IMG/VR virus record: IMGVR_UViG_3300030107_008258
Location: 64,001 to 128,000 of that record
Reading direction: 5' to 3' (one strand)
Length of the DNA stretch: 64,000 nucleotides
Source: a virus
In this document: one piece after another, positions 10,414 through 63,969 of the stretch
Position numbering within the stretch: the stretch's first letter is position 1
Layout of the letters: each line of letters starts with the position of its first letter
Notes under the pieces: generated by a model
The model's input: the letters and a program-made list of their open reading frames with translations, nothing else
What the model was told of the DNA's origin: nothing
Databases searched by the model: none
Position numbers and translations under genes: made by a program

Positions 10414-10443
10414 ATTCCTAGTGTATTATTACACTATTTTTGG

Positions 10444-11439
10444 CTACACTCCGTGAATTTTCATCATATCCTCCATGCTTAAAGATCCACCTTTTTCTGC
10501 GGCTTTTTTAGCGAGGTTTATAGTTTCGTTTGGATTATCTAAGCCTAAACGTTTTAAGTCTTCCTTGGTAGCACCCACTAAAGATACCGCCGAACCTTCT
10601 TTTTCTGCAGCTTTTGACTTATCTAACACTTCTCTAGCGTTTTTAGAGGATTCAAACCATTCTACCAATTTGTCAGGATCATGCCTTATATCGTCAGGAA
10701 CTTGATTTTCAGCGTTTTCTAGAAGGGATTTGTAATATCTTCCATATCCAAAAAGTTCTATTTGATAAAAAGTCAATTCAACTAAAGGTTTTCCAAAGAA
10801 GACGTGAGCATTATTCTCACATAAATAAAATAGATTAACAAAAAAAGTAGAAAGAGAAACCTTTTTTAAAGCTTGTGAATTATATTTTTTAGTGCTTTTA
10901 TTATATAAATCGATCAATCCCATTAGTTTCCGTTCTTCCAACTCCTCAAATTCCTCTGGAGCAAAGAGGCAAGAACCATCCTCTTTTAGTAACGCAAACT
11001 GCATGTAATGCTCGTTGATTCTTCTTTGAGCATAGTTTTCGGCGCAAAAACCTATCAACTCTTCCTTTTCTAATTCTAATTTAGACAATTTGAATTGATT
11101 TTCTTTCAGTTGAGCATTTAAACTTTCTATATGAGATGCTAAAAAGAGTTTTGATTTGGATTTTTTTAACCCTGCTACCATACTCTTAAGGTTTAGAATT
11201 TCCTTATTCTTTCCCTCGTCCCAAATGTTTTCCTTTACTAAATAATCTATACGTTCCCTTTTTGTAGGGAGACCTTGTTTTACTGCTTTCTCGTAAAAAT
11301 AACGATTTTTTATGTCTAATTCGGCAGAATCGAAATTATTGAAGTGTTTAACCTTTATTTTTCCGAATTCCTGAGACTCCGCTAGGGTGAACCCTCTAAG
11401 AACTTCGGAAAATATTACTTTTAAACTGCCATCTTCCAC
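10444..11439 (-). CDS. Putative tail assembly chaperone (pre-tape-measure)
   Basis: 331 aa, helical and charged, directly upstream of the tape measure. Its GTG start overlaps the stop of the upstream ORF (TAGTG). Confidence 0.55.
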   Translation of the reverse strand: MEDGSLKVIFSEVLRGFTLAESQEFGKIKVKHFNNFDSAELDIKNRYFYEKAVKQGLPTKRERIDYLVKENIWDEGKNKEILNLKSMVAGLKKSKSKLFLASHIESLNAQLKENQFKLSKLELEKEELIGFCAENYAQRRINEHYMQFALLKEDGSCLFAPEEFEELEERKLMGLIDLYNKSTKKYNSQALKKVSLSTFFVNLFYLCENNAHVFFGKPLVELTFYQIELFGYGRYYKSLLENAENQVPDDIRHDPDKLVEWFESSKNAREVLDKSKAAEKEGSAVSLVGATKEDLKRLGLDNPNETINLAKKAAEKGGSLSMEDMMKIHGV

Positions 11440-12215
11440 TATTTTTCTTGCTCTTCGACTTCTTTATCTTCTTCGTCTAATTTCATTGCAAGGTCTATCA
11501 TGCTTTGGAACTCCTCCTGACTATTGGGCCTTCCTACGAACCAAAAACTAACATAATAAGCAAATTTTCGAGCAGCTAAAATTGAAAAAACTTCCTCAGA
11601 TTCGTCTATCTCATCATACCGTTCGAGTTTTTCCTCAAAATTACCCTCTCCAAAGAAAGGAACATCTTTTCCGTCTTGCTCCCAATAACCTAAGTGAAGA
11701 AGCCACCATAAAATCACCTTATTTCGCGCTCGATTTTCTGCCGTTTCTTCGTAAAGACCATCTTCCACTAATTGTAAATCTCGGAGGTCTTTTCTCGCTG
11801 GTTTAATTTCTGTCTCTAGTTCTTTTAACCTCTTTTTCTGAGCGGAAGTTCTTTTCTTTTCGGTTACTTCAAGAATTTTTGACTGTTCTTTATGGAAATT
11901 TTGAAGTTTCTCTATTATTTTTTGATACTGTTCGTTTTCATCATCGCTTCGTGTTCCTCCATCATTTTCGAAACGTTTCTCTAATAAAGCGCGGGTTAAT
12001 AGACCGGCTTTGATTCCTTCAGCTAGCTTTACTCCGTAATAAAGCTCTGCTTCGTCAGTCATAGCTCGTGTAGGGCGCCTTAGAAAGAACTTGTGAGGTA
12101 CATCCTTTTTTACATCTTTGGAAATTGTAACTTCTGTCCCGTCTTTTTTCTTTTCTACGGTTTCTTCCTTAACGGTTTCTTCTCGACTTACGGTGAATTC
12201 GTATATACGCTTCAT
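11439..12215 (-). CDS. Putative tail assembly chaperone
   Basis: 258-aa charged protein between tail tube and tape measure. FFLRRPT resembles chaperone 'xxxRxP' motifs. Confidence 0.55.
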   Translation of the reverse strand: MKRIYEFTVSREETVKEETVEKKKDGTEVTISKDVKKDVPHKFFLRRPTRAMTDEAELYYGVKLAEGIKAGLLTRALLEKRFENDGGTRSDDENEQYQKIIEKLQNFHKEQSKILEVTEKKRTSAQKKRLKELETEIKPARKDLRDLQLVEDGLYEETAENRARNKVILWWLLHLGYWEQDGKDVPFFGEGNFEEKLERYDEIDESEEVFSILAARKFAYYVSFWFVGRPNSQEEFQSMIDLAMKLDEEDKEVEEQEK

Positions 12216-12466
12216 TTTGGTTTATTATTGTTATATTCGACAAATTTCTCAAAATATTCCTCTAGTTCACGAATACAATCGTTTCCTAGATCTAATATTC
12301 TTTTTCGGATTCTTTGGTGGGTTTCTTCTGGAATTTTTATTCCATCTACTTGGAGGTCTTCTAAAATAAAGAAAAATTGTTTATAAAGATTTGTTATCTT
12401 TCTTCGCGTTTGGAACGCAAAAAAATTATTGATAATATCCCTATCCTTACCTTCTTCCTTAGACAT
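12212..12466 (-). CDS. Hypothetical protein
   Basis: 84-aa ORF with an AAGG SD and a GTGTA element upstream. It overlaps the next gene by 4 nt (ATGA). Confidence 0.7.
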   Translation of the reverse strand: MSKEEGKDRDIINNFFAFQTRRKITNLYKQFFFILEDLQVDGIKIPEETHQRIRKRILDLGNDCIRELEEYFEKFVEYNNNKPK

Positions 12467-12508
12467 ACCTTGTACCTTATATCTTATGTATAATTACACA
12501 AAAAATAC

Positions 12509-12537
12509 AAAAAAAAGCCCCTCCGAAGAGGGGGCTT
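12509..12537 (-). terminator. Rho-independent terminator after tail tube gene
   Basis: Minus-strand RNA reads AAGCCCCCUC-UUCG-GAGGGGCUUUUUUUU: a GC stem, C(UUCG)G tetraloop and U-tract. Confidence 0.88.
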
Positions 12538-12564
12538 AATTAAATATTAACTAAATATTAGCTA

Positions 12565-13860
12565 TTAGGCAGGACTGTTAGCTAGATAATAACCGCTCAT
12601 AAAGAGGCCCATTCCTGACTGCTCTGGACCACCAATCTGCGAGGTAAAGCTAAGAGACACTGTCTTATTGTCTCCCATCCCTACACTGTAGGATTGGCTA
12701 TCTAATTTAATTCCTTTAAGTATATAGTTAGCTGCAGCGTATCTTTGTTGATGCGCATCTGACATTCCCGCGCATTCTGGGGCTCCAAGTTGTATACGCG
12801 CATCAAATAGATCATCACAATCAATCATTTCAGCCAATGAGCCTGTGGTCAAATCTGAAACCACAGCATCAACTCCTAAACTTACAGTAACCGGAAAGTC
12901 TATTACTCGAGCATAAGCGAACTTCGTTCCGAGCTGTTCAATAGAACTACGACTTAAATCAAAACCAATATTAAAACTTTGAATATGAGCATTTTCTATA
13001 CTTGCTCCAGCGTAGTCCGGTTTACCCATACTTGTACTTGTTGCAGCAGTGCCCACGCTCTTGTCTGCCTGTTTTGAAAGGAATAGCTTGAGGTCGCCGG
13101 GACGCAATACACTAACTGATCCAGCGGCAGTGTCTGAAACACTTCCAGTCGGACAAGGCAGCGCTACAGGGGTTTCGTATCTTTTTCCATCTATTGGATT
13201 GATAGCTGGGTTCCTTCCTGTGATGTACCATGGTCTTTTTAAGTTTTTACCCGGACCGGGGGCGGTGTCAGGCTTTGAATAAGCACCAACTCCTCCATCT
13301 CCAAAATTTTGGAAATTCATATTAAGTCCTTCGGCAGAGAAGGACACTGAAGGAAATCCTCCTACGGCAGCTTCTACAGAATAAGAGGTAAGTCCTGCAT
13401 TTCCGATTCCAATTAAACTTTCAAAATTTCCGCTTGTAGCCGTAGTCGGGTTTAGAGATGTTTCATCAGCGTCTTTACCTTCTTTAGCATTAAGGATGTA
13501 AAAGTTCTTTTGATAAGCATTAGTAGTTGAATCTATAATGTCACTGATACATGACTTAAAAGGTCCGACGACACCGCTTTGAGTTACATGAAAACCAAGT
13601 TTATATTCATTACCAAAATTGGCTAAAAGATAACTGCTATCAAAAGAAACGGAAGGTGATTCGGTAATAATTCTATCAATAGCGCCAAGCTGCCCAAATT
13701 GATTAACGTCTGTGCGACTAATATTAAAAGAATAGTTGCAGCTTTGCACCCTATCTAAATCTATATTGTCCCTGTAGCCAGTTTGCGTACCGCTAAATAC
13801 TACATCTTGAGATGCATAAACTGCTTCACTTTGGTAAATTACTCGATTTCTGGTAGCCAT
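12565..13860 (-). CDS. Major tail tube protein (putative)
   Basis: 431 aa, beta-rich. It sits between neck genes and chaperones/tape measure, has a strong SD and its own terminator, and shows an internally repeated tube-like motif (RVQSCNYSFNISRTDVNQFG / HIQSFNIGFDLSRSSIEQLG). Confidence 0.75.
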   Translation of the reverse strand: MATRNRVIYQSEAVYASQDVVFSGTQTGYRDNIDLDRVQSCNYSFNISRTDVNQFGQLGAIDRIITESPSVSFDSSYLLANFGNEYKLGFHVTQSGVVGPFKSCISDIIDSTTNAYQKNFYILNAKEGKDADETSLNPTTATSGNFESLIGIGNAGLTSYSVEAAVGGFPSVSFSAEGLNMNFQNFGDGGVGAYSKPDTAPGPGKNLKRPWYITGRNPAINPIDGKRYETPVALPCPTGSVSDTAAGSVSVLRPGDLKLFLSKQADKSVGTAATSTSMGKPDYAGASIENAHIQSFNIGFDLSRSSIEQLGTKFAYARVIDFPVTVSLGVDAVVSDLTTGSLAEMIDCDDLFDARIQLGAPECAGMSDAHQQRYAAANYILKGIKLDSQSYSVGMGDNKTVSLSFTSQIGGPEQSGMGLFMSGYYLANSPA

Positions 13861-13921
13861 TTTAAATCCTTAATTGTTATCTTAATTTACAGTTAATATG
13901 GCCAAAAGTGAAATTATTTTA

Positions 13922-14785
13922 CTATTGTCGCGGGAATCTGAATTTACTAAGCTCAAAATCTATTAACGTAGAGTAAACATTAGGATTAAATTTTCTCACT
14001 TCATTTTCTAAAACTCGATCAAAACGAGAAATATTAATATCATTTAGGAAAACTTGATCCGCATTGGTTTTTCCATCCATTATTCCAGTATAATTGTACT
14101 GGCTATTACGATAATAACCAAATTGGTTAAAGGGCATCTCTGAAGCTTCTAATAAATAAAAATTTGTTTGTCTTTGGTCTCTAAAAAGGGAACCAATTGC
14201 ATCGATATCAAACTGACTGTCGGCAATTACTATAGCCCTCACATTAATAATTGTATCATCCATCCCCCCAAAAGCAAGCGGCTCGTTAGAGCTGCCATCC
14301 GGCTTAAGGTAAACAACAGGATAAGTTTTTGTATCCGGCTCTAATCCCGTCGGAACAACTGAACCTATTTTATTTCTATTAGTATATTGAGTTTGGAATA
14401 AAATCTCATCTTCGGTTCTACTCGTTAAGTAAACATTAAAGTCTTTTATAGCGAAACTTCCTGTAATGTTTTGGGATTGAGTCCCTGACCAATAAGAACG
14501 GCCATTTCCGTAATCGATAGCGTATAACCCGGTATTACCCCCTTCCCCCACATTGACCAAAGTATTTCCCGCATAAAGCCCGGTAGGAATAGTAGCTCCT
14601 GTTATAGAAGCATCCGACACAATTTGCGAATAGGAGCTGGCATAAGTGTTATAACCATAGTAATCATCAGATACGCTATAAAACTGTCCTGTTGTGTTCT
14701 GGTAAGCTTCGCCTTTTGTTAAAAGCTTATTGTCAAACCACAATAAAAAACTAGACATTACTTGGTTGTCAAATTGAGCCTTCAT
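13922..14785 (-). CDS. Putative tail terminator / neck protein
   Basis: 287 aa, immediately upstream of the tail tube gene. The YPVVYL..G.....LAFGG segment is typical of tail-completion proteins. Confidence 0.55.
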   Translation of the reverse strand: MKAQFDNQVMSSFLLWFDNKLLTKGEAYQNTTGQFYSVSDDYYGYNTYASSYSQIVSDASITGATIPTGLYAGNTLVNVGEGGNTGLYAIDYGNGRSYWSGTQSQNITGSFAIKDFNVYLTSRTEDEILFQTQYTNRNKIGSVVPTGLEPDTKTYPVVYLKPDGSSNEPLAFGGMDDTIINVRAIVIADSQFDIDAIGSLFRDQRQTNFYLLEASEMPFNQFGYYRNSQYNYTGIMDGKTNADQVFLNDINISRFDRVLENEVRKFNPNVYSTLIDFELSKFRFPRQ

Positions 14786-15384
14786 TTAAATTTTTTCTTT
14801 GCGTTTTTAAGAATTTCGTGAATATAAGGAGTCGGACTAAATCTAATAAAATTTATTTGCTGCTTACTTTGTAACGCTACTCCAGACCGACTATTCTCCG
14901 AATCTTTAAACACGGTGTTAGTATAATTAGTTATACCTCTTTCTATTCCTTTTACCCAACTTTTTGTAGACCAAGTTAATGGAGTCTGCGCGTAAACATC
15001 TGTTATAGAAGGAACAAGACCTATATCGTATTCTAGTAAAAATTTATTTTTTGAAACTTTTCTCAAATGGCCCTGATTTCTACTAACTTTAAACATTTTG
15101 TCAAAAATTCCCCTTACTATCTCTATAGGCTGACTCCCTTGATTAAACCCTAAAAAACCAAAAAGACTTCCTCTTCCACCTAATAAAGGACTCCCCATTG
15201 CGTTAGGGCCAGCTTCTATTTCTTTGGTGACGGGATGAGCATTTAGTTCATCAAGGGCTTCTTTTTTAATTTTATCAACTTTTCTTTTTGCCGCATTATA
15301 GGCAATTTTCTGTAATTCTTTCGACCCTTTAAAATTATAATTTTTAAGCAAGTCGTTTATATTAAGTTTTTTTGATCTTGGCAT
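14782..15384 (-). CDS. Putative neck / tail-completion protein
   Basis: 200-aa basic protein in the head-tail joining cluster, with a C-terminal PTPYI motif. Translationally coupled to its neighbours. Confidence 0.5.
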   Translation of the reverse strand: MPRSKKLNINDLLKNYNFKGSKELQKIAYNAAKRKVDKIKKEALDELNAHPVTKEIEAGPNAMGSPLLGGRGSLFGFLGFNQGSQPIEIVRGIFDKMFKVSRNQGHLRKVSKNKFLLEYDIGLVPSITDVYAQTPLTWSTKSWVKGIERGITNYTNTVFKDSENSRSGVALQSKQQINFIRFSPTPYIHEILKNAKKKFK

Positions 15385-15821
15385 TAGGTAGTTGCCTCCA
15401 AATAATAAACATAATAAGTTTTTCCTATAAAAAATCTAGCTCCATCAGAGCTAACTACGTTAAATAAACTTCCATTAATTTCAATTGACTCAGTTTTCCC
15501 TTTATCGATATAGTTTTTACAGTCAACTTCTACTTTAATTCTAACGTCCCCTTTTTCTATCATAACTTTCAATTCGTCTTGATATTCTAAAGGTTGGTTT
15601 TCTTTATAGTTAACGATAGCGCTAAAGGATTCGCTTACTGGAGTATAGGTTACTTGAGTCTTAGGCGCGCTATAACCTGCGTAAATATTTTGATCAGCCG
15701 TTAAAGAAACGCTTCTTTGCGGCTCCTTATTAACTGTTATAGTAGCTTTAAAAGTATCAAAGTGATCTCCTAGAGCCGTCTGAAAAGCAGTTTTTGCTGC
15801 TGCTGGTATTAAAGAAGCCAT
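15384..15821 (-). CDS. Putative head-closure (stopper) protein
   Basis: 145-aa beta-barrel-like ORF (IEINGSLFNVVS...YYVYYL) following the adaptor gene. Confidence 0.55.
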   Translation of the reverse strand: MASLIPAAAKTAFQTALGDHFDTFKATITVNKEPQRSVSLTADQNIYAGYSAPKTQVTYTPVSESFSAIVNYKENQPLEYQDELKVMIEKGDVRIKVEVDCKNYIDKGKTESIEINGSLFNVVSSDGARFFIGKTYYVYYLEATT

Positions 15822-16444: not shown

Positions 16445-16455
16445 ATAGTATAAAT

Positions 16456-16460
16456 TACAC
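16456..16460 (-). promoter_or_regulatory. GTGTA late-promoter element (example copy, neck operon)
   Basis: AGTGTAATTTATACTAT-ATG. One of about 20 copies upstream of transcription units (see findings). Confidence 0.75.
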
Positions 16461-16482
16461 TATATGGAGTTTTTTTGGAAAA

Positions 16483-16755
16483 TTAAGTATGTTCGGCCGG
16501 TCTTTCCCCTAAAACCGAAGTATCCCACACGGCACGAACCTCAACCTCCGAAGTAGCGTCGTTAAGGGCCGTGCTATTTGTCACGTCTCTCAAAGCTTGT
16601 TTTTTGGTGGCAACCTCTGTCTTCTTGGATGCATCTCCTGCTTCATCAGCACGTTGATAATCAATATCTAGAGCCTCTAAAAGAGGTTTACGAACTTGAC
16701 GAAAACGTTCCTTTTGAAGCTCTTTGGCTTTTGGTATATTTACTCCTATTGGCAT
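16483..16755 (-). CDS. Tail fibre assembly chaperone-like protein
   Basis: The motif R..RKPLLEALD...KKQALRDVT resembles phage tail assembly chaperones (R..R..LL...D...RQALRD). Confidence 0.6.
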   Translation of the reverse strand: MPIGVNIPKAKELQKERFRQVRKPLLEALDIDYQRADEAGDASKKTEVATKKQALRDVTNSTALNDATSEVEVRAVWDTSVLGERPAEHT

Positions 16756-16758
16756 AAC

Positions 16759-16998: not shown

Positions 16999-17047
16999 TT
17001 CTTTTTATTACACTTATTTTAATTATTTTTGGTTAAAAGTCCATTTT

Positions 17048-18169: not shown

Positions 18170-18172
18170 TTT

Positions 18173-27444: not shown

Positions 27445-27445
27445 T

Positions 27446-27829: not shown

Positions 27830-27868
27830 ATAGTTTTATTACACTATATGCAGGTTTTTTTTGAAATA

Positions 27869-28234
27869 TTATCTTCCTTCTGAAAGTATTTTCATGCCTT
27901 CGGCATTTATCTTCGCATTAGCATCCGGTTCTGTGATGGGTTTTTTATAAGCGGATACATGTTTTCTAAATTCTCGCATTAACCTTTCCCTTAACATTCC
28001 TCTATTATCAATAGGAATAATACCTACCCTAGAAGCATGACTTTGCAGGTCTGACATGTTCATGTCGTCTAAACGCTTTTGATATTGCATGTCATCCATC
28101 GTACCATACATACTGCTTCCATCGTCTCCCCATATTTGGTCTAGAGTAGTTGCCTCAAATTTTTCTACTTTTGCATGAGTTTGAGACATTTTTTTAACAG
28201 AAGTCTTTTTTGAAGTTTTCCTTTTTGCTGCCAT
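27869..28234 (-). CDS. Hypothetical protein downstream of capsid gene
   Basis: 121 aa with an AAGGAA SD and a GTGTA element. It has a small helical domain (LDDMNMSDLQSHASRVGI). Confidence 0.7.
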   Translation of the reverse strand: MAAKRKTSKKTSVKKMSQTHAKVEKFEATTLDQIWGDDGSSMYGTMDDMQYQKRLDDMNMSDLQSHASRVGIIPIDNRGMLRERLMREFRKHVSAYKKPITEPDANAKINAEGMKILSEGR

Positions 28235-28275
28235 AATCTTATTCCTTATAGTAGTAGAAAATACACTTTTTTTCC

Positions 28276-28312
28276 AAAAAATAGAAAACCCCGACCCTTA
28301 CGGGCCGGGGTT
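28276..28312 (-). terminator. Rho-independent terminator after major capsid gene
   Basis: Minus-strand RNA reads AACCCCGGCCC-GUAA-GGGUCGGGGUUUUCUAUUUUUU (GNRA loop). Confidence 0.88.
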
Positions 28313-32075: not shown

Positions 32076-32080
32076 TACAC
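32076..32080 (-). promoter_or_regulatory. GTGTA late-promoter element (capsid operon)
   Basis: TGTGTAGAATATATAGTAACA-ATG, just downstream of the terminator at 32099-32135. Confidence 0.7.
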
Positions 32081-33044: not shown

Positions 33045-33069
33045 ATCAGATTATCTTACACATTGGAAA

Positions 33070-33713: not shown

Positions 33714-33731
33714 TTTAAATTACACTATTGT

Positions 33732-47719: not shown

Positions 47720-47722
47720 AAC

Positions 47723-49578: not shown

Positions 49579-49611
49579 TTTTCCTTAAACCTTATTATAA
49601 TATACACTATT

Positions 49612-52910: not shown

Positions 52911-52930
52911 AATTTACTTTAAATTTACAC

Positions 52931-55702: not shown

Positions 55703-56804
55703 TTAAAACCTCTTCTTCGCTAATGCCCATAATACGCGATTTGATATCTTCCATTGAAGATAATCTTTCTATTTCAGATGATATGTTCTTTTTACGTATT
55801 TCAGCTATCTTTATCATTTTATTCCTTGACTCTTCATCTTTCCAAAGTTCTACAAGGTTTAAAATAGAAGCGGATTCTTGAAGCACTTTACTTAGGCGTT
55901 GACTTCTCTTTTCTTTTAATTCGTTAAGAAGTTTGGTCTGTCGATTAACGCATTGGTTGTATTCTGTTTGAGCTGTATTAATGGCTTCCACTAAACTCAT
56001 CGCCATGCGTCTCCCCTCTGTGTCTTCGGCATTTTGATCTAATAAAGTCTGTAGTCTCTCAACCCTTCGTTGGATATTTGAAGCTATGACGACTTCCGCA
56101 GAAAGAACTATATATTGATCTACCTCTTCTTGAGAAAGATCCGATTTATCCCATGTATACCTTACAAAGCTACTCTCAAAAAGCTCCCTATCAGTTTCAA
56201 CTGAATAGGTACTAATTTGATGTAAAAAACGAAAAGTATGCATATAGGCAATTAACGTAGATAAATTCTTTTTTATTTTAGGAGTAATCTTTTCTTTATC
56301 AATTCCATTATGTACGTACTTATTAACTCTCACGACAGCGCGTGATTCTGATTTTGGTGGAGCGTATCCTCCTTCAGCTGGAATCTCTTCGCTGTTATCG
56401 CTATATTTAACTTGATTAGGTATAGTGTTTATAAAGTCCGCCACGACTTTGTAACGCAAGTCTAGTGCTGAAATTTTATTATCATCAAAAATGAGTCTTG
56501 CCATATCCATTGGTTTCATGGCGCTGCAATTATTGGTAATAAATTCTTTTTGATCTTCGGTGAGTTCTACTTTCTCCTTGGGATAATACTTATGAGAGAC
56601 TTTTGCTGATAGACTTTTTTTAGCAAGAAATTTCTTAACAGCCCTCCCGTATTTAGACCTACCGTCTCTTTTGTTTTCGGGAATATCGGGGAAAACAAGT
56701 TCTATTAATTCTGCAATGTAAGGAGGGTCGTCCACCCTTTTATTCCACTCTTCTAGAATAGCTAATTCTTGATCTTCATTTAATTGTATAGTATTCTCTT
56801 TCAC
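55695..56804 (-). CDS. Hypothetical packaging-operon protein (terminase small subunit candidate)
   Basis: 369 aa with an HTH-like middle and a long C-terminal coiled-coil, upstream of terL. The function is positional inference only. Confidence 0.4.
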   Translation of the reverse strand: MKENTIQLNEDQELAILEEWNKRVDDPPYIAELIELVFPDIPENKRDGRSKYGRAVKKFLAKKSLSAKVSHKYYPKEKVELTEDQKEFITNNCSAMKPMDMARLIFDDNKISALDLRYKVVADFINTIPNQVKYSDNSEEIPAEGGYAPPKSESRAVVRVNKYVHNGIDKEKITPKIKKNLSTLIAYMHTFRFLHQISTYSVETDRELFESSFVRYTWDKSDLSQEEVDQYIVLSAEVVIASNIQRRVERLQTLLDQNAEDTEGRRMAMSLVEAINTAQTEYNQCVNRQTKLLNELKEKRSQRLSKVLQESASILNLVELWKDEESRNKMIKIAEIRKKNISSEIERLSSMEDIKSRIMGISEEEVLNG

Positions 56805-57484
56805 AACATTTCTATTTCTCCATTAGAAATAATCTTTTTAACTTTTTGTATAATAGCTTTTTTTACATTTTTAATTTGTTTATAACCCGGGACCCTGTTT
56901 TTTTCATTAGTCTTATACCCCATGAGGGAAGCTGCTTTTTCTTCAGATAAATTGTCTATATAAAGCGCTTTATAAATTTTCCATTCGGCAGGCTTAAGCA
57001 CTTCTTTCATTTTCTCATTTAGCTTTACCATTAAAGAAATAATATCTATATCATTATATTCAGCAGCATTAATTTCTGTAGAATGTTCGTTAATAGAAAC
57101 TGGGAGCTTAGCATCGTAAGCTTGTTTTTTAGTTCTTACCCAATTAGCAAAAAGGGGACACGTTTCAGATTGTTTCCCATAAATATAGCACAAATCTCCC
57201 GATTCTGCAGCTGCGCACTTTAAACATGGCCTACAATAATTACCGTAATTGTTACGTATTAGATTTTTAATCTGATTGGATATAATCCTATTGATCCACG
57301 GATTAAGTGGCTTTTTAGTGTCATAAAGATGCCACTTTTTAAATATATGAATTCTTAGAATTTGGGAAACGTCATCGAAATCCATCCACGAAAGCGCAGT
57401 CAAGTTCCACTTGGATTTTCTTTTTTTTATTTCTGCATCTATCTGTTCTATATAATCTTCAAATTTAGGTTTAGGTGTCGGCAT
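56801..57484 (-). CDS. Phage RNA polymerase sigma factor (sigma-70 family, regions 2 and 4) with Cys-rich insertion
   Basis: Region-2-like DFDDVSQ..RIHI.KKW..YD...LNPWINRIISNQIKNLIRN and region-4-like LKPAEWKIY..LYIDNLSEEKAASLMGY. Confidence 0.78.
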   Translation of the reverse strand: MPTPKPKFEDYIEQIDAEIKKRKSKWNLTALSWMDFDDVSQILRIHIFKKWHLYDTKKPLNPWINRIISNQIKNLIRNNYGNYCRPCLKCAAAESGDLCYIYGKQSETCPLFANWVRTKKQAYDAKLPVSINEHSTEINAAEYNDIDIISLMVKLNEKMKEVLKPAEWKIYKALYIDNLSEEKAASLMGYKTNEKNRVPGYKQIKNVKKAIIQKVKKIISNGEIEML

Positions 57485-57860
57485 TATCGCGGCGAGATGA
57501 GCCAGCGTCCCGAAGGAAGTCCTGTTGTATAGTGTCCTTTGAGTAACTGGGGTCTACCTCCCTCTGATAGCCGTCGTCTAAAGCGTTAGGATTGGATCCT
57601 GCAATATCTTGAATTTTATGAGAACTAAGTCCTATTTGGCCCTCTAGTTCAAAATCTAATTTATTAATCCTCGGAGGCGAAAATTTCTCTTCTTCCTCGA
57701 TAACACTATCTTTTGTAATCTTTGGTGAGTTAGTTTTAAAAACTTTTGGAGTAGTGGACTGACCCATTGAACCAAACAAACTACCGCAAGAACCACAAAA
57801 CTTAGGTTTCTGAAGAGAATACTCTGTCCCGGACCCACAAGTTGGACAATATTGTTTCAT
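57471..57860 (-). CDS. Zinc-ribbon protein
   Basis: YCPTCG...KPKFCGSCG double CxxC. First gene of the sigma/terminase operon. Confidence 0.8.
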   Translation of the reverse strand: MKQYCPTCGSGTEYSLQKPKFCGSCGSLFGSMGQSTTPKVFKTNSPKITKDSVIEEEEKFSPPRINKLDFELEGQIGLSSHKIQDIAGSNPNALDDGYQREVDPSYSKDTIQQDFLRDAGSSRRDNADT

Positions 57861-57869
57861 GAATGATAT

Positions 57870-57874
57870 TACAC
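57870..57874 (-). promoter_or_regulatory. GTGTA element upstream of the Zn-ribbon/sigma/terminase operon
   Basis: AGTGTAATATCATTC-ATG, with a 9-nt spacer. Confidence 0.7.
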
Positions 57875-57924
57875 TAAATATATTATTAAAAAATATAGGT
57901 TTTTCAAAAAAAGTGTATACCTAT

Positions 57925-58200
57925 ATGGATATGGAAAATGTCAAATTCAAGACTTCGGATGGTGTAGAATACGAGTTAATATGGAAAAAACCCCACCATA
58001 CTTATAATGCTGATGGCTTATGTTATTCTCCAGAAGCTGATAATCCTAAAATTCTTGTTGACCCAAAACTTAAAAAAAGACGTAAAATGAGCACTCTTAT
58101 AGAAGAGGTTACTCATGCATTCTTTTGGGACAAGACAGAAAAAGAAGTAAGAAAATTCTCCTCTGTTCTTGCCGGGTTAATAAATAAACAAATTAAATAG
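57925..58200 (+). CDS. Minimal metallopeptidase-like protein (variant motif EEVTH); probable start 57925 or 57931
   Basis: ADGLC...P.I.VDPKL.....TLIEEVTHA matches phage zincin-like proteins except for H->E. A GTGTA element lies at 57913. Confidence 0.55.
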   Translation: MDMENVKFKTSDGVEYELIWKKPHHTYNADGLCYSPEADNPKILVDPKLKKRRKMSTLIEEVTHAFFWDKTEKEVRKFSSVLAGLINKQIK

Positions 58201-58954
58201 TGTCACAATCTGCTAATTTTGAAACGATAAATTTAGTCAACTCTGATCGAACAATATCTTCTTCACTAAATTCAAAAGTGTGAATGCCCATGTCCCTGCT
58301 CTCTTTATTATTGAAAATATCATAAAGTTTGACAAACCCTCCCCGATTTCCATTTTTTAAATCGGTTTGCATGGGATCTGCCATAATAATGCATCTTGAA
58401 TACTTACCGATTCTGGTAAGAACAGTTACTATTTCCCTAAAAGAGCTGTTTTGGGCCTCGTCCATCAATATAGCTTTTCCGTTCCAGCTCATTCCTCGAG
58501 CAAAATTAACAGGATGAATGGAAACTCTTTTTTCTTTCTGAAGTTTTCGCACGGTATCTTCACTAAGTAATTCGTCCAATTTATCCATAAAAGGCAAGTT
58601 ATAATAATGAAGCTTTTCATCAGCGTCTCCGGGAAGAAACCCAAGACGAGAGTCTGAACTTTCTACCGCTGAACGCATATATATAACATCTGAAACTTTT
58701 GATTGATTAAGTAAGCTTAAAGATGAATATACTGCCGTTAAAGTTTTTGAGCTCCCTGCCGGACCTTTACATAAAATAAGACGAGTATTTTTGTCTTGAG
58801 AAATTTCAATAAAACGTTTCTGTTTTTCCGTCCAAGGTAATTCTTCTATGTAGAAATTATCCTTAGGTTTAATTGGATCTCGTTGATGAATCTTGATCCG
58901 TCCGTCCGCAACTTCGAGAGAATCAAAATTCCCTGCGCTTTTTACTTTTGGCAT
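58193..58954 (-). CDS. phoH: PhoH-like ATPase
   Basis: GPAGSSKT, RSAVE...LGFLPGD..EK, RGMSW, DEAQN, LTRIG, DPMQTD and F..EDIVRS motifs. Confidence 0.95.
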   Translation of the reverse strand: MPKVKSAGNFDSLEVADGRIKIHQRDPIKPKDNFYIEELPWTEKQKRFIEISQDKNTRLILCKGPAGSSKTLTAVYSSLSLLNQSKVSDVIYMRSAVESSDSRLGFLPGDADEKLHYYNLPFMDKLDELLSEDTVRKLQKEKRVSIHPVNFARGMSWNGKAILMDEAQNSSFREIVTVLTRIGKYSRCIIMADPMQTDLKNGNRGGFVKLYDIFNNKESRDMGIHTFEFSEEDIVRSELTKFIVSKLADCDTI

Positions 58955-58963
58955 TATAGTAAA

Positions 58964-58982
58964 TTACACTAAATTAGTGTAA
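58964..58982. promoter_or_regulatory. Back-to-back GTGTA elements forming an inverted repeat (TTACACTAA-A-TTAGTGTAA)
   Basis: Perfect 9-bp arms between the divergent phoH and MscS-like genes. Confidence 0.7.
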
Positions 58983-58998
58983 CATAAATAGAAAAGTT

Positions 58999-59490
58999 AT
59001 GAATGAATTAACAAACGCTATTCCCGATATCGTAAATTTAACCTCTAATATACAAAAAGAAGAGGTAAAGGGCTTTTTGGAAAATTTAATCGGCGAATAT
59101 GGATGGCTCTTGTTTGCGGCGGTACTAACAATCTTGGCTAAAGATATGATTATGAATTTTGTTCAGGGATTGCTTGTTTTTATGGGGAATGATTTTAATA
59201 ATGACGACATTATTTATATTTCCGGCCGTCAAGCACGTATAGTTCGCGTCGGAATTCGTAATACGGTTTTTTACATGACAGACCGCCGGACTAAAATGTT
59301 GGTTCCCAACGAACAATTAAAATTACTAACTATTGAAAAAAGATTACCTAAAAACGGGGGAGAGCCCTATCTTGCCAAAGGTAGTGATTCTAATTTCATG
59401 GGATTTGAAGAAGTTCCCATAGCTCCCTCTCCTATGCAGGTGGAAGTAGTAGAGGCACCTTCTCCTCCCTCCAAAAGAACAAGAAAATGA
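58999..59490 (+). CDS. MscS-like (mechanosensitive channel beta-domain) membrane protein
   Basis: A TM helix followed by KDMIMNFVQGL....FN.DDII.ISG..ARIVRVGIRNT.F......LVPNE, which is the MscS TM3/Sm-like domain signature. Confidence 0.75.
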   Translation: MNELTNAIPDIVNLTSNIQKEEVKGFLENLIGEYGWLLFAAVLTILAKDMIMNFVQGLLVFMGNDFNNDDIIYISGRQARIVRVGIRNTVFYMTDRRTKMLVPNEQLKLLTIEKRLPKNGGEPYLAKGSDSNFMGFEEVPIAPSPMQVEVVEAPSPPSKRTRK

Positions 59491-59717
59491 AAAAAATAAC
59501 AGCATTAGCATCTATCTTTCTCATGGGATGTACTAGCGTCCCCAACCTTAAAGAAGTTGATTTAAGCATAACAGGATTAGAAATGGAGTTCTATGACAAC
59601 CGAGAAGCTCCCATCATTTTTGATTATAATGCGGACATAGAAAGAAGATACCAAGAAAGAAAAAATCGCAATAAAGTCACTAATTATGGAAAATTAATGC
59701 CCATGACTAAAAAATAA
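59487..59717 (+). CDS. Lipoprotein
   Basis: Lipobox MKKITALASIFLMG|C. ATGA overlap with the upstream gene. Confidence 0.7.
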   Translation: MKKITALASIFLMGCTSVPNLKEVDLSITGLEMEFYDNREAPIIFDYNADIERRYQERKNRNKVTNYGKLMPMTKK

Positions 59718-59734
59718 GTGTAAAGATTATTGAA

Positions 59735-60277
59735 ATGAAAGAGATAGATTTTACAGAGCAGATCATTAAATGGCGCGAAGAAGAAGCTGCTAAAACAAAG
59801 AAGCAGTGGGAAAAGATCGATACTAAAGAACTTAAACGTGACACTAAAAAAGAAAAGAAGGAGCACGAAAAAGACGCCATTAAAGACGACGAGAGTAAAA
59901 TCAAAAAACTTAAAAAAGGAAAGCCATCCGAAAAAAAGAGCGTTGAAATTCACGACATTAAAAAGGACGAGAAGTACGATAAAGCTAAAGCTGCCAAACT
60001 AAGCAGTAAGCAAAAAAACGATTTGCCTGATTCTGATTTCGCTTATATAGAGCCCGGTGGAAAAAAAGATTCCGAAGGAAAAACAACTCCTCGGTCATTA
60101 CGTCATCTTCCTATTAATGACGCAGCACATGTGCGAAATGCTTTAGCCAGACTCGATCAAACTGATATTAGTGCAGAGGCTAAAAAAGCGGCTCTGAAAA
60201 AAATTAAAGCCGCAGCCAAAAAATTCGGTATTAAGGTTAGCGCGTCAGCTCAAATCGACTATTCTGACTTATACTAA
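59735..60277 (+). CDS. Lys-rich protein with DUF6582-like C-terminal domain
   Basis: L....KNDLPDSDFA...RHLPINDAAHVRNALAR.....A.KKI.AAAKKFGI motif. A GTGTA element lies upstream. Confidence 0.7.
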   Translation: MKEIDFTEQIIKWREEEAAKTKKQWEKIDTKELKRDTKKEKKEHEKDAIKDDESKIKKLKKGKPSEKKSVEIHDIKKDEKYDKAKAAKLSSKQKNDLPDSDFAYIEPGGKKDSEGKTTPRSLRHLPINDAAHVRNALARLDQTDISAEAKKAALKKIKAAAKKFGIKVSASAQIDYSDLY

Positions 60278-60297
60278 TCTTTCTTTTAGTTTCGCTA

Positions 60298-60332
60298 AAG
60301 AAAAAGCCCCGCGACGGCGGGGCTTTTGTTTT
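60298..60332. terminator. Bidirectional rho-independent terminator
   Basis: AAAAAGCCCCGC-GACG-GCGGGGCTTTTGTTTT lies between convergent genes, with A/T tracts on both sides. Confidence 0.88.
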
Positions 60333-60344
60333 ATAGAGTTGTGA

Positions 60345-60581
60345 TTATTTAATGCGACGTCTTAAAAGCAGTGGATCGAAGTTATCGTTGCTATCCCAAG
60401 CAAAAGGTTCCCATCCTTTGGGGATATTTTTGCCAGTAGAAGTTTTGAATTCCCACTGTTGATTTGTGTCCCAAGGGGTAATTTCAAGTTTCGATGCACC
60501 TGTTCCGAGAACTACAGTAGCAGTTAATAAAACGCCAATCGCGAACGATTTCCAGTCGAGTAGTCTCATATTCATTATCAC
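60345..60581 (-). CDS. Small membrane-anchored/secreted protein
   Basis: N-terminal DWKSFAIGVLLTATVVLGTGA hydrophobic segment, then QQWEFK..GWEP...LLRR. Confidence 0.65.
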   Translation of the reverse strand: MIMNMRLLDWKSFAIGVLLTATVVLGTGASKLEITPWDTNQQWEFKTSTGKNIPKGWEPFAWDSNDNFDPLLLRRRIK

Positions 60582-61093
60582 TCCCCGGGCTCGTTGCCGT
60601 CAATAACCTTGTCTCTATTGTTTTTAAACTCTTCGCGGATTTCTTTAATCCTTGAATGAACTTCTTTTTGGTGAGCCCTCATTGCTTCAGCCCATTCTTT
60701 GCGAGAAGCCTTCATTTGTTCCCGAAGCGCTGCTTTTTCTTCGTCAGTAGCATCTTTCCATTTGTTTTTGTCGAATCCGACTTTCATTTTTTCAGTAGCT
60801 TGTTTAAACGCTTCCTTCAACTCTTTGATTTTTGCGTCGTCTCTAATAAGCTTGCCAAAAGCCTTGCCTCTATGGTTGACTTTATGACCGCGTTTCTTAG
60901 CGTCTCCTCTACGCTTCTTTCTTTTATCAAAAGCGGCTTTAAGGCGTTCTTTAATCTTCTCGCGATCAATTTTATTTTCAGGACGTGGCTTCTCTGGTTT
61001 TTCCTTGTCTTTTTTAGGTCGAGCTTCCGCGGTTGATAACACTGATGCAATAACTGCGACCAGTCCGTATTTTAGTATACGAGATGTAAACAT
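60578..61093 (-). CDS. Periplasmic helical protein (Spy/CpxP/ZraP-like composition)
   Basis: Signal peptide ending AEA, with a highly charged all-helical mature region. A sigma-54 promoter lies upstream. Confidence 0.55.
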   Translation of the reverse strand: MFTSRILKYGLVAVIASVLSTAEARPKKDKEKPEKPRPENKIDREKIKERLKAAFDKRKKRRGDAKKRGHKVNHRGKAFGKLIRDDAKIKELKEAFKQATEKMKVGFDKNKWKDATDEEKAALREQMKASRKEWAEAMRAHQKEVHSRIKEIREEFKNNRDKVIDGNEPGE

Positions 61094-61108
61094 AACATTC
61101 TTTACACT

Positions 61109-61124
61109 GCAGGAAATGTGCCAA
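61109..61124 (-). promoter_or_regulatory. Sigma-54 (RpoN) -24/-12 promoter
   Basis: Minus strand TTGGCACATTTCCTGC has exact GG-N10-GC spacing and a TGGCAC core. Confidence 0.72.
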
Positions 61125-61172
61125 ACAATAAATGGGCATTTGTTGGGAATTTAATATATTTGCAAACAAAGC

Positions 61173-61221
61173 GCGGGTAATAATTCCCACTTAATTAAAA
61201 TGAGCGGGAAATGTTCCCCAC
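61173..61221. promoter_or_regulatory. Two palindromic enhancer-like sites (GCGGG-N8-CCCAC), 31 bp apart
   Basis: GCGGGTAATAATTCCCAC at 61173-61190 and GCGGGAAATGTTCCCCAC at 61204-61221, about -85 and -115 from the sigma-54 start. Confidence 0.65.
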
Positions 61222-61237
61222 TAGTGTAATAAATAAA

Positions 61238-61450
61238 GTGAAAAAGAAACATGTCGTTATAGGCGCTATAGTGGCTGCTGTGGCCGTTTTAGCTTTCTGG
61301 TTAGTCCGTGGTGAAGAAATTAAAGAAAAAGCCGCAGAGACAGCAAAGGAGGCCGCAAAAGAAGCTATTGTAAACAAGGTAGTGGACGAGGCCGCTGACA
61401 AAGCTAAAGAAAAACTTAAAGAAGAAGTTTTAGATAAGTTGCTTCCGTGA
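61238..61450 (+). CDS. Single-TM membrane protein (probable GTG start 61238)
   Basis: MKKKHVVIGAIVAAVAVLAFWLV followed by a charged helix. The GTGTA element is 9 nt upstream of the GTG. Confidence 0.65.
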   Translation: MKKKHVVIGAIVAAVAVLAFWLVRGEEIKEKAAETAKEAAKEAIVNKVVDEAADKAKEKLKEEVLDKLLP

Positions 61451-61798
61451 ATGAAGTTTCATCTCTATTTAAGAGAACTGCGGCAACGTAGATTTAAAGA
61501 CACTCGCAAACTATGCCTTATGTTAGGAGTGAGTAAGGATATGTGGCGCAAATTAGAACGTGGAATTAATCCTCCCCCTAGAAGATCAATACTGAGAAAA
61601 TTTTGCATTTTAGTAAACGCTTTAAGCTACGAAGAAAATCAATTATATACTTTAGCTAGAAGATGGGAGCCTCACGAAGATACTAATACCGCCAACCACA
61701 TTTTAATGGATTCTCGATCTAAGCCAGAATGGAAAGAAGCACTTATGGATCAAAACCGTCCCGACTATGCTCATAAATATTGGAAACCTCTAGATTAG
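61451..61798 (+). CDS. XRE-family HTH protein
   Basis: LRELRQRR...RKLCLMLGVSKDMWRKLERGINPPP matches the HTH_XRE pattern. Confidence 0.78.
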   Translation: MKFHLYLRELRQRRFKDTRKLCLMLGVSKDMWRKLERGINPPPRRSILRKFCILVNALSYEENQLYTLARRWEPHEDTNTANHILMDSRSKPEWKEALMDQNRPDYAHKYWKPLD

Positions 61799-62109
61799 CG
61801 AATACGAGTTAATAAATCGTTCAGATTTTCAAAGGCTATACGATCTACCCTTATAGAAGGTGGCCTTACTCTAGTGTTGGCTATACGAAGCCCAAAAATA
61901 TCATCTGAAGGAGAAATTATATCTTCTACAAAATCCCACAGGCCGGTGTGCTTAGCCCAGTTGTAGTAAAGATCAGTATTGTCTTTCTCAGCTTCTAATA
62001 ATATCTGCCGCTCTTTTTGAAATATACTTAAATAAAGACATACTCCCCGAATGGCTAATGAGTCACTGGGAGGTTCCACAACACTTTCGTAGAAAATGAG
62101 CGAATGCAC
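61795..62109 (-). CDS. Hypothetical protein
   Basis: 104 aa with a GTG start 9 nt after a GTGTA element. Confidence 0.6.
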   Translation of the reverse strand: MHSLIFYESVVEPPSDSLAIRGVCLYLSIFQKERQILLEAEKDNTDLYYNWAKHTGLWDFVEDIISPSDDIFGLRIANTRVRPPSIRVDRIAFENLNDLLTRIR

Positions 62110-62124
62110 TCAATGTTTTACACT

Positions 62125-62835
62125 TTATATATCGTGGTATATTTTAGACCTTAATGGGGATGGCTTTTTATTCAATTCCGTTTTCTTTTCTTCGTCCGGA
62201 TAATGGTTGTAAAAAAAATAAGGACTATTACCATATGATCGATCAATATCTTCTGAAGTCATTTCTTTATCATAGATTCTAACTCTTGGAGGCTTTTCCT
62301 TATCATACGGAATAATAAAATCAGGATTATGCCAGCGCAAAAGATTATTGGGAGGTATGGCATAGTTTCCATCATCCATTTCCAGAAAGTGATAACATTT
62401 TGAATCTTGGTCGTTAGCGTATCCAATATTGAGCTCATTAAGGTCCCCCTCGTAATCGTCAATAGTAAATACATACTTACCAGAACGCCATACTCTGTCG
62501 CGGCAGAATACGTCCACGCGACGGTTTTGCAAAAAACCGAATGTCGTAACTGCGATATCATTATCTTGGCAATCCCACGTCTGTAGGAGCGACAATCTTG
62601 TTTGCTCATCTTCAGATAAAACATCGTAGTCCTCTTTATGACAAAAGGCCGAAATTGGCATCTGCCAAAAAATCGCCCCAAAGCACGATTGGAAATGAAA
62701 GTGCATAGGACGATTGATCATTGATTTTACACCAAATATGTACCCTTCTGTCAATCCAGAGCTTTCGGGGCCAAAAATATAACTGTTTCTTATAAAACAT
62801 CCAATGTAGGGAGTGTTAGCGTTTAGTTGAGCCAT
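62125..62835 (-). CDS. Conserved phage hypothetical protein
   Basis: LNANTPYI.C.IR..Y, GAIF..MPISAF, LQ.WDC, GKY.FTID and GNYA..PNN is a family I recall from aquatic phages; function unknown. Confidence 0.7.
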   Translation of the reverse strand: MAQLNANTPYIGCFIRNSYIFGPESSGLTEGYIFGVKSMINRPMHFHFQSCFGAIFWQMPISAFCHKEDYDVLSEDEQTRLSLLQTWDCQDNDIAVTTFGFLQNRRVDVFCRDRVWRSGKYVFTIDDYEGDLNELNIGYANDQDSKCYHFLEMDDGNYAIPPNNLLRWHNPDFIIPYDKEKPPRVRIYDKEMTSEDIDRSYGNSPYFFYNHYPDEEKKTELNKKPSPLRSKIYHDI

Positions 62836-62867
62836 TTTTAGTTAATCTCGTGTAATATTATTCTATA

Positions 62868-63155
62868 ATGCCAAGTGATAATAAAAAAATTACTTTTGCG
62901 GATCTGGATGGGTTCCTCAAAATTGCGCCAATATTAGGTATATGTGTTTTAGCTTATCTTCAAACTATGTTTCCAAGTAAAGTGGAATTTGAAAAACTAG
63001 AGAATCATTTAATCCAAATGGATAAGAAACTAACTGAAATGGCGGTAGTCAATAAAACCATAACTAATAACTCAAGTGAAATAAGAAATATTAACGACAG
63101 AGTAAGACAATTAGAAATTCAACTAGCAAAACACGATAATCACGACAAATCATGA
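62868..63155 (+). CDS. Single-TM coiled-coil protein
   Basis: A TM segment followed by heptads ending RVRQLE. A GTGTA element lies 13 nt upstream. Confidence 0.65.
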   Translation: MPSDNKKITFADLDGFLKIAPILGICVLAYLQTMFPSKVEFEKLENHLIQMDKKLTEMAVVNKTITNNSSEIRNINDRVRQLEIQLAKHDNHDKS

Positions 63156-63463
63156 AATGGGCACTACCTCTTCTTTTCGTCGTTAGCTTATACGCGTCCC
63201 CCACTATAGATCCAGATATAGAAATCAAGATACCGGGTTTGGTTTGTCAATCTTGCGCTATTGGCGTTAAAAGAGGACTAAAGAAGACTAACCTTATTAA
63301 AGATATAAAATTTAACGTCGAAAAAGAAATATGCCTTGTTGAGTACATCAGTATAGAAATTCACCCGAGCCAAATTAAAAAAATTGTTAAAGACGCCGGG
63401 TATGAAGTGAGATACATTAAATGGCTTAAAGACAAAAAACCAAATAGGTACAACAAGCCATGA
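63152..63463 (+). CDS. Secreted heavy-metal-associated (HMA) domain protein, MerP/CopZ-like
   Basis: Signal peptide, IPGLVCQSC (GxxCxxC) and I...V.DAGYEV HMA signature. Confidence 0.85.
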   Translation: MKWALPLLFVVSLYASPTIDPDIEIKIPGLVCQSCAIGVKRGLKKTNLIKDIKFNVEKEICLVEYISIEIHPSQIKKIVKDAGYEVRYIKWLKDKKPNRYNKP

Positions 63464-63591
63464 TCTGCAAAAACAGATATTGTTTCGACGATACCTGTAA
63501 AGGCGAATGCACAAAAAAACAAACTAAAAAAAACCTCCCACCAGTTAAGGTGAGAGGTTCTGATTATAAGCTACTCTCAGACAACTAAAAA

Positions 63592-63918
63592 TTATTTAGT
63601 CTCAATAGTTAGTCCGTTGGTGAAATGAAGCACCCAGTTAGCAATCCACGCATAAACTGCGCCTCCTACCCAGCCGCCAATTCCAAATGCTGCGATACTA
63701 CCTAAGTCAGCAGAAACCGCCTCACTAATCTTATTTATTCCACCATCAACATCACCTAATGCTCCAGCGCCGATTAAAGCCAACACAGGGAGCACTACGC
63801 CTTTGATAGCGCCAGTAGCTACTCCGAGCAAACCTAAAAAGTTAGCAGCAGAGCGTGTATGTATTTTTGTAATAGTCATTTTTTTCATAACAGAAACAAA
63901 CTGTTTAATCACAATCAT
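63592..63918 (-). CDS. Small two-TM membrane protein (DUF3566-like); start may be 63888
   Basis: TITKI...SAA..LG...G.VGGAVYAWIANWV....GLTIE pattern. Confidence 0.6.
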   Translation of the reverse strand: MIVIKQFVSVMKKMTITKIHTRSAANFLGLLGVATGAIKGVVLPVLALIGAGALGDVDGGINKISEAVSADLGSIAAFGIGGWVGGAVYAWIANWVLHFTNGLTIETK

Positions 63919-63969
63919 AAACAGTTAATACTATTACACGGCTTAGTTCCTTGAGAGAGAAGGCTGTAT

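Follow-up and report, generated by a model that had tools for sequence, protein, structure and literature searches.

What is the five-base word GTGTA, which stands just before start codons throughout the structural genes of an uncultured marine phage, and what reads it? We studied it in a 64,000-nucleotide (nt) stretch of DNA, bases 64001-128000 of the 144,418-bp phage record IMGVR_UViG_3300030107_008258 in IMG/VR. This whole stretch is called the window here, and coordinates are window positions unless marked 'genome'. An initial annotation, made from the letters of the window, had proposed that GTGTA is a phage late promoter, that it is read by a sigma factor encoded at 56801-57484 and that it gives near-leaderless messenger RNAs (mRNAs). 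Our results suggest that GTGTA is a one-piece promoter of middle and late genes, used by the host core RNA polymerase with a phage sigma factor, most likely the zinc-ribbon sigma at 56801-57484 (hereafter sigma-W), and that short spacers between word and start codon yield leaderless mRNAs. We put the probability of this reading at roughly two in three.

Genes were called mechanically as the longest non-overlapping open reading frames (ORFs), giving 169 genes that cover 95% of the genome (38% GC), and every 5-, 6- and 7-mer was scored for enrichment on the coding strand in the 45 nt before starts. We found that GTGTA, GTGTAA and GTGTAAT were the top non-trivial words of this ranking. Of the 109 GTGTA copies on both strands of the genome, 28 fall in the upstream regions, which hold 2.4% of positions (10.8-fold, p 4.6e-21); the same was true of 23 of the 50 copies of GTGTAA (20-fold, p 1.6e-24) and 14 of the 17 copies of GTGTAAT. 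No Shine-Dalgarno (SD) word appeared in the top lists for this genome; in a control ranking of T4 and phiEco32, SD words came first and GTGTA stood at background. Comparison with an AT-matched background, a check that the initial annotation had called for, confirmed the enrichment: there are 27 intergenic copies, compared with 7.8 ± 2.6 (maximum 18) in 1000 dinucleotide-preserving shuffles of the intergenic DNA, which makes up 4-5% of the genome (4.2% by the gene calls). A start codon lies within about 30 nt ahead for 24 of these 27 copies. In the window as a whole the word is under-represented (57 copies versus 84 ± 10 expected).

The 20 GTGTA sites and 21 spacings listed in the initial annotation all proved correct, on the coding strand. 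The listed GTGTA spacings are 9-13 nt at 12 sites, 15-17 nt at five and 24-28 nt at three. The sites are given below together with one orphan copy; lengths of proteins are in amino acids (aa), and fractions give the orthologous upstream variants in which the word is kept.

10430-10434, minus strand: GTGTA, 16 nt before ATG 10413 of the tape-measure gene (minus strand; 2194 aa, PhageMin_Tail)
12495-12499, minus strand: GTGTA, 28 nt before ATG 12466; AAGG words in the spacer; right after the terminator at 12533-12518
16456-16460, minus strand: GTGTA, 11 nt before ATG 16444
17009-17013, minus strand: GTGTA, 10 nt before ATG 16998
27840-27844, minus strand: GTGTA, 10 nt before ATG 27829
28262-28266, minus strand: GTGTA, 27 nt before ATG 28234; AAGGA in the spacer; follows the terminator at 28312-28287, which has an 11-bp stem
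32076-32080, minus strand: GTGTA, 15 nt before ATG 32060; a hairpin of -24 kcal/mol and a T-run upstream
33057-33061, minus strand: GTGTA, 12 nt before ATG 33044
33721-33725, minus strand: GTGTAA, an intergenic orphan; the next 63 nt contain no start codon
49603-49607, minus strand: GTGTA, 24 nt before ATG 49578; AAGG words in the spacer; kept in 6/6
52926-52930, minus strand: GTGTA, 15 nt before ATG 52910 of the portal-like 624-aa gene; kept in 17/17
57870-57874, minus strand: GTGTA, 9 nt before ATG 57860; heads the operon of a zinc-ribbon protein, sigma-W, a 369-aa protein, the ERCC4 nuclease and the terminase
57913-57917, plus strand: GTGTA, 13 nt before ATG 57931 and 7 nt before the in-frame ATG 57925; divergent from the sigma-operon promoter
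58965-58969, minus strand: GTGTA, 10 nt before ATG 58954 of PhoH; kept in 25/25
58977-58981, plus strand: GTGTA, 17 nt before ATG 58999; divergent from the PhoH promoter
59718-59722, plus strand: GTGTA, 12 nt before ATG 59735; kept in 20/20
61103-61107, minus strand: GTGTA, 9 nt before ATG 61093; directly after a sigma-54-like TGGCAC-N5-CTGCA
61224-61228, plus strand: GTGTA, 9 nt before GTG 61238; inside the longest ORF (start 61211); kept in 9/9, with flanks 41% identical
62119-62123, minus strand: GTGTA, 9 nt before GTG 62109
62850-62854, plus strand: GTGTA, 13 nt before ATG 62868
63935-63939, minus strand: GTGTA, 16 nt before ATG 63918; a terminator hairpin about 35 nt upstream

As had also been proposed, the word corrects ORF starts across which the callers had extended: 57931 replaces 57859 and 61238 replaces 61211. 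The RNA 3' of the orphan copy (33725) is not unusually structured (z-score -0.84) and has no Rfam match; this copy may head a long leader for a 195-aa gene or, alternatively, a small RNA. At 61103-61130 (minus strand), a good sigma-54-type -24/-12 word adjoins GTGTA, with one orthologous variant only, and two promoter types may overlap there.

A logo of 25 sites reads aGTGTAA in AT-rich DNA. It is blank at -35, and no information was found upstream of -6 from the motif in any of four clades of related phages (see below), which bears out the absence of a -35 box noted in the initial annotation. None of the 15 single-mismatch variants of GTGTAA was enriched upstream; ATGTAA, for example, was found there in 1 of its 75 copies (0.8-fold). 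All five letters of GTGTA are required. The variant CTGTA, which had been suggested as a further promoter at 13860, gained no support from this analysis, as 1 of the 104 copies of CTGTAA lies upstream of a start (0.6-fold). As a separate observation, an A-tract resembling TTTCAAAAAAA lies 0-25 nt 5' of several GTGTA sites at variable distance (16456-16485, 27840-27870, 57913-57930 and genome 129132-129170), and may be an UP-like element.

Position relative to transcription units was specific. GTGTA stands at 25 of 81 transcription-unit heads and before 1 of 87 operon-internal genes (Fisher p 2.5e-8). Diverging gene pairs carry one copy for each direction, and the gap between the copies varies (genome 58319/58330; window 58969/58977); the third inverted pair, at 10421/10434, converges instead, and no gene lies ahead of its plus-strand copy. 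The terminators described at 12.5, 28.3 and 32.1 kb, which are strong and intrinsic, do lie directly 5' of GTGTA. At a further terminator, genome 42506, the T-run touches the word and ATG follows 9 nt beyond. GTGTA thus abuts terminators, leaving no room for another promoter, especially at genome 42506. Because the word is strong at unit heads, rare inside operons and placed against terminators, we infer that it is a promoter rather than a translation signal. The evidence for a single-element promoter with ties to a phage sigma family, to which we now turn, is strong but indirect.

IMG/VR holds 425 contigs with a close sigma-W. Four clades were pooled, consisting of 80 loci whose sigma-W is 67-92% identical to the one here and of 7, 35 and 75 loci around more distant family members, with about 31-44% identity to sigma-W. 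The co-occurrence of motif and sigma homologue, which had been put forward as a check, was found throughout: all four sigma-W clades have GTGTA as their leading upstream 5-mer, enriched 9-14-fold. Orthologues were then anchored through their coding sequence alone; this gave 148 unique upstream variants for 12 window sites, and all 148 kept GTGTA, with flanks 41-96% identical and the offset often shifted by insertions or deletions. In addition, NZWA01000041.1, a 77-kb contig in a Flavobacteriales metagenome-assembled genome (MAG), encodes a sigma-W homologue of 65% identity and has seven GTGTA sites 9-21 nt before starts. We take this contig for a probable phage sequence that was binned with a possible host.

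The genes served by the word indicate when it would be used. The window contains the structural and packaging module; besides the tape measure and the portal-like protein it encodes fibre proteins of 2720 and 2748 aa, a T4-type large terminase, PhoH and the ERCC4 nuclease. On the genome, the units headed by GTGTA extend from about 42 kb to 129 kb, with a single further one at 16.7 kb, and at 0-44 kb and 130-144 kb TTGAC-N17-TAnnnT promoters are found in its place. PhoH, many small genes and a few units of the replication and nucleotide region have it at their head as well. The term 'late promoter' in the initial annotation is therefore too narrow for the class, which, given the span of the units it heads, is middle plus late.

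We then considered the distance between GTGTA and the start codon. Among 481 unique sites in the pooled loci, where the mechanical start calls mean that single spacings may be off, the spacing is 8 nt at 4 sites, 9 nt at 116, 10 nt at 65, 11 nt at 29, 12 nt at 58 and 13 nt at 13; another 77 sites are at 15-17 nt and 40 at 24-27 nt. The two discrete distances of the initial annotation are thus not confirmed. A sharp short class begins at a hard floor of 9 nt and decays from there, but what follows is a diffuse tail that spans 14-33 nt. The floor itself is robust, because most of the few shorter cases have TTG or GTG as their called 'start', an effect of ORF extension. Within the 9-nt class a pyrimidine immediately precedes the start codon in 108 of 116 cases (93%) and does so in all four clades, compared with 50% for other genes, and the starts are ATG or GTG, never TTG. 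Of the 268 start codons in the 9-12-nt classes, 252 are ATG, 15 GTG and one TTG.

The same phages provide a calibrator for these numbers. Of 173 heads with a canonical TTG-N16-18-TAnnnT promoter, 67 have the end of the promoter exactly 6 nt from ATG, so that +1 would be the A of ATG. Canonical promoters with this placement show the same pyrimidine preference (82 of 90, 91%), and transcription should therefore start on the start codon in the 9-nt class of GTGTA. The start site, previously proposed to lie 7-9 nt after the motif, is better placed 10 nt (± 1) after its last A. SD-like words occur in 1% of the pooled spacers of 9-13 nt, 12% of those of 14-19 nt and 43% of those of 20-33 nt, and such a word is present in all five long spacers of this genome, consistent with the AAGG-type SD words attributed earlier to the long class. 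Together, the 9-nt floor, the pyrimidine signature and the near absence of SD-like words from short spacers suggest that most short-class GTGTA genes should make leaderless mRNA, as far as this can be judged from sequence. Host-type promoters in these phages abut start codons too, and the near-leaderless layout is therefore general for the lineage and not special to GTGTA. In distant relatives 6 nt separate the end of the host-type -10 hexamer from ATG; in this genome the distance is 8-11 nt, and many of its early genes (130-144 kb) begin GTTATGAG.

These spacings also bear on a different explanation, namely that GTGTA acts within the mRNA as a post-transcriptional signal for ribosome recruitment, stability or processing, taking the place of the SD sequence in a low-SD host. 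Its nearness to start codons would suit such a role, as would the rarity of SD-like words, which precede 26% of the genes without GTGTA in these phages. However, a translation signal would be needed just as much inside operons, where a single gene in 87 has the word. The spacing ranges over 9-30 nt, with a separate SD word once the spacer is long, and both the 9-nt floor and the pyrimidine, which is confined to the 9-nt class, match what is seen at canonical promoters. Furthermore, GTGTA lies against terminators with no other promoter upstream of it, and the lack of complementarity between GTGTA and the usual anti-SD sequence also counts against a role of this kind. We regard it as very improbable, and return to GTGTA as a promoter.

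The window encodes a candidate reader of GTGTA, sigma-W, which heads the structural and packaging module. The region around its gene is as follows.

57880-57907, minus strand: conserved host-type promoter TTGAAA-N16-TAATAT, immediately 5' of the sigma-operon GTGTA
57471-57860, minus strand: zinc-ribbon protein of 129 aa, preceding the sigma-W gene
56801-57484, minus strand: sigma-W, 227 aa, of the sigma-70 family, with four invariant Cys between sigma2 and sigma4; the candidate GTGTA reader

Two genes of the genome match Pfam Sigma70_r2 above its cut-off, sigma-W and a second phage sigma at genome 38785-39384 (sigma-2), and the two are mutually dissimilar. Sigma-W scores 26.2 bits against Sigma70_r2 (cut-off 24) and E 1e-7 against TIGR02937, which is below that model's cut-off. 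The profile of its family matches the sigma2 domains of extracytoplasmic function (ECF) sigmas in PDB (SigR, SigW and CnrH), which points to a sigma2 domain with regions 2.1-2.4. No Pfam r4 match was found in sigma-W. Its AlphaFold model, with a predicted local distance difference test score (pLDDT) of 94, ends in a four-helix bundle formed by residues 148-220. In Foldseek the top matches are without exception sigma factors, with full-length but weak alignments (E 5e-3 to 1e-1) to ECF, SigB and sigma28 chains. The C-terminal domain thus looks sigma4-like in the model. A scan of 1.84 billion representative proteins gave 444 family clusters at 50% identity, and an alignment of 113 of them shows invariant C87, C90, C99 and C109, plus N74 and W115, between the sigma2 helices and the C-terminal helical domain. 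Sigma-W would accordingly represent a new sigma family with an invariant four-Cys zinc ribbon, an unusual build that would fit an unusual one-piece target.

The 129-aa protein combines an N-terminal zinc ribbon (CPxCG...CGSCG) with an acidic tail. Of 197 related loci, 181 have it directly before the sigma gene; it is missing from the clade around P0128, and no family match was found for it in Pfam or PHROGs. Its role could be that of a co-factor or of an anti-sigma. The head of the sigma operon, compared in about 40 unique orthologues, consists of an invariant TTGAAA, a variable 16-nt spacer, TAnnAT, 1-6 variable nt, GTGTAA, 9-10 variable nt and ATG. This arrangement suggests a tandem pair, in which the host-type promoter would give the first supply of sigma-W and GTGTA would allow self-amplification. 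GTGTA lies upstream of the sigma-W operon in all close relatives; in most of the distant clades the operon has a host-type promoter, and in some it has GTGTA too.

Several findings weigh against the reading as a whole. A conserved -35 word is lacking although the C-terminal domain of sigma-W resembles sigma4, and in the 10-12-nt classes the pyrimidine/purine signature is weak. None of the public RNA runs was found to contain the phage, and two metatranscriptome runs from the same sample yielded just four short, spurious contig pieces, which are uninformative about expression. No GenBank phage has a detectable homologue of sigma-W or sigma-2 (tblastn with three sigma-W-family members and sigma-2). 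The only host lead is the one Flavobacteriales MAG bin, and it is weak because the early promoters here are of the TTGACA/TATAAT type. Lastly, both sigmas occur in 7 of 7 near-complete relatives (148-205 kb; the 27 other records are fragments), so that presence or absence cannot separate sigma-W from sigma-2.

The word might then be a promoter read by sigma-2, with sigma-W merely one of its targets or in another role. Sigma-2 is an ordinary ECF-type factor of 200 aa that passes the sigma70-ECF superfamily cut-off, and its C-terminal part resembles RinA late activators. A strong, conserved host-type promoter (TTGAAG-N16-TATAAT, about 100 nt upstream) suggests that it is made early, and in this clade the sigma-W operon is itself GTGTA-driven. 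Moreover, only two promoter classes are seen for three sigmas, including that of the host, and no third promoter word could be assigned to sigma-2 among 731 unit heads lacking both classes. However, the sigma-W operon keeps a host-type promoter as well, so bootstrapping poses no problem if sigma-W is the reader. Alternative sigmas usually regulate themselves, and GTGTA was found upstream of sigma-2 in 0 of 14 cases. An ordinary two-domain ECF sigma such as sigma-2 is also expected to need a -35 word, which counts against it here. We therefore consider a sigma-2 promoter unlikely. Sigma-W is the better guess, by roughly 3 to 1, because of the footprint of GTGTA on its own operon, the lack of the word before sigma-2, its better conservation (82-92% identity, compared with 62-82% for sigma-2 in the same close relatives) and its place at the head of the packaging and structural module. 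Of the proposal in the initial annotation that the sigma at 56801-57484 reads GTGTA, the tie to a phage sigma family is thus supported, and sigma-W is the probable reader only, given a second sigma in every near-complete relative.

GTGTA could also be read with no phage sigma at all, by the host polymerase with a host sigma of extended -10 or ECF type, or as the site of a phage DNA-binding regulator. There is a cellular precedent: sigmaL of Mycobacterium tuberculosis, an ECF sigma, reads cGTGTc/a (PMC6372665), and the AT-rich DNA after GTGTA is loosely TAATAT-like. The -10 element of sigmaL is C-14 G-13 T-12 G-11 N-10 C/A-9 A-8 G-7 (PMC6372665), and GTGTAA fits every specified position from -13 to -8, the comparison being of promoter words alone. 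SigmaL has an ECF-type sigma2 domain, and its flipped 'master' nucleotide is the G at -11. In contrast to the GTGTA system, it belongs to a cell, depends on a -35 element and lacks a zinc ribbon, and its mRNAs are not usually leaderless. A host ECF sigma is further disfavoured by the lack of a -35 word, and a host factor of any kind by the fact that GTGTA tracks the phage sigma family across clades and is absent from early regions with TTGACA-type promoters. Specific forms of the idea were also rejected. With TA of the word as -12/-11 of a host extended -10, the start would fall inside the start codon at the 116 sites with a 9-nt spacer, and a host -10 hexamer should have T at its sixth position, which holds for only 13 of 25 sites. 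A dimeric regulator or operator fails on a 5-bp asymmetric site with variable partners, divergent copies being 4, 7 and 10 nt apart. We give the whole group of explanations little credence.

Our preferred reading, GTGTA as a promoter for a phage sigma, can be put together as follows. The word (aGTGTAA in AT-rich DNA) would be the -10-like element of a one-piece promoter, recognized by host core RNA polymerase carrying a phage sigma-70-family factor, most likely sigma-W. Sigma-W would first be made from the host-type TTGAAA-N16-TAnnAT and then amplified from its own GTGTA promoter. GTGTA would lie at about -14 to -10, with the start some 10 nt past its last A. With the commonest spacer, 9 nt, the start would be the A of ATG and the mRNA leaderless; with spacers of at least 20 nt, there would be a short leader with an AAGG-type ribosome-binding word.

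Parts of this scheme have counterparts in known systems. The late promoters of T4 consist of TATAAATA, read by gp55 with gp33 and the sliding clamp. GTGTA resembles them in being a single -10-like element without a -35, in its probable use of a phage sigma and in serving structural genes. The two differ in the word itself (GTGTA(A) as opposed to TATAAATA), in that gp55 lacks sigma4 whereas sigma-W has a sigma4-like domain, and in that T4 late mRNAs have SD leaders. At the middle and late promoters of coliphage phiEco32, gp36 (with gp79) reads AATGTA at -14 to -9, and the G at -11 is the first unpaired base (PMC12276001). There, as proposed here, a distant phage relative of sigma-70 redirects the host polymerase to a short -10 word containing TGTA, with no conspicuous -35, and early genes are expressed through the host sigma-70. 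Beyond the generic sigma2 motif, the proteins are nevertheless not detectably related: the sigma-W family and gp36 give an hhalign probability of 1.6% over 17 aligned columns, gp36 is not among the Foldseek matches listed for sigma-W, and gp36 has no zinc ribbon, in contrast to the sigma-W family. The words share only TGTA, the first G being obligatory here, and phiEco32 genes have SD leaders whereas GTGTA promoters abut start codons. Thus the closest working analogues are phiEco32 and T4 late transcription, and the closest -10 word by sequence is that of sigmaL. For the leaderless part, the precedents are the leaderless mRNAs of Actinobacteria, Deinococcus and archaea, in which the -10 lies at a fixed short distance from an ATG that is the first transcript base, and there is no SD. 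The phages differ in using this layout for both host-type promoters and a promoter class of their own, and in belonging to a marine lineage; in their case the layout is deduced from the DNA. A full-text literature search (phage, sigma, late promoter) found no paper on the GTGTA motif.

If correct, the reading supplies a promoter code for a group of marine phages that is very abundant and wholly uncultured, with more than 400 related contigs carrying a close sigma alone. Such a code would let transcription units, gene starts and temporal classes be read from sequence. A new zinc-ribbon sigma family with a strict, five-base, one-element target could also serve as an orthogonal expression part, and the leaderless layout points to a marine bacterial host whose translation accepts leaderless messages on a large scale. 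A wider picture can be drawn tentatively, though the odds are somewhat against it as a whole: this 140-205-kb marine lineage might run nearly its whole programme on leaderless mRNAs, with host-type and five-base promoters both starting on the start codon, and the zinc ribbon of the sigma-W family might replace -35 recognition by contacting the upstream GTG, in the manner of an extended -10, with the 129-aa zinc-ribbon protein as its partner.

As to the rest of the genome, the terminase resembles SPbeta-type phage terminases only remotely, and because of this distant likeness the large proteins were examined for a YonO-like or other phage RNA polymerase. They comprise the tape measure, the fibres, a GpJ-like tail protein, DNA polymerase III alpha and ribonucleotide reductase, and no RNA polymerase of either type was found among them, in keeping with a promoter used by the host core enzyme. 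The window has no DNA-level match among GenBank phages and no Rfam match anywhere. At genome 135-143 kb, TAAGTCG and CAACGACTTAGG recur 5' of early units, and GC-rich stretches are found there.

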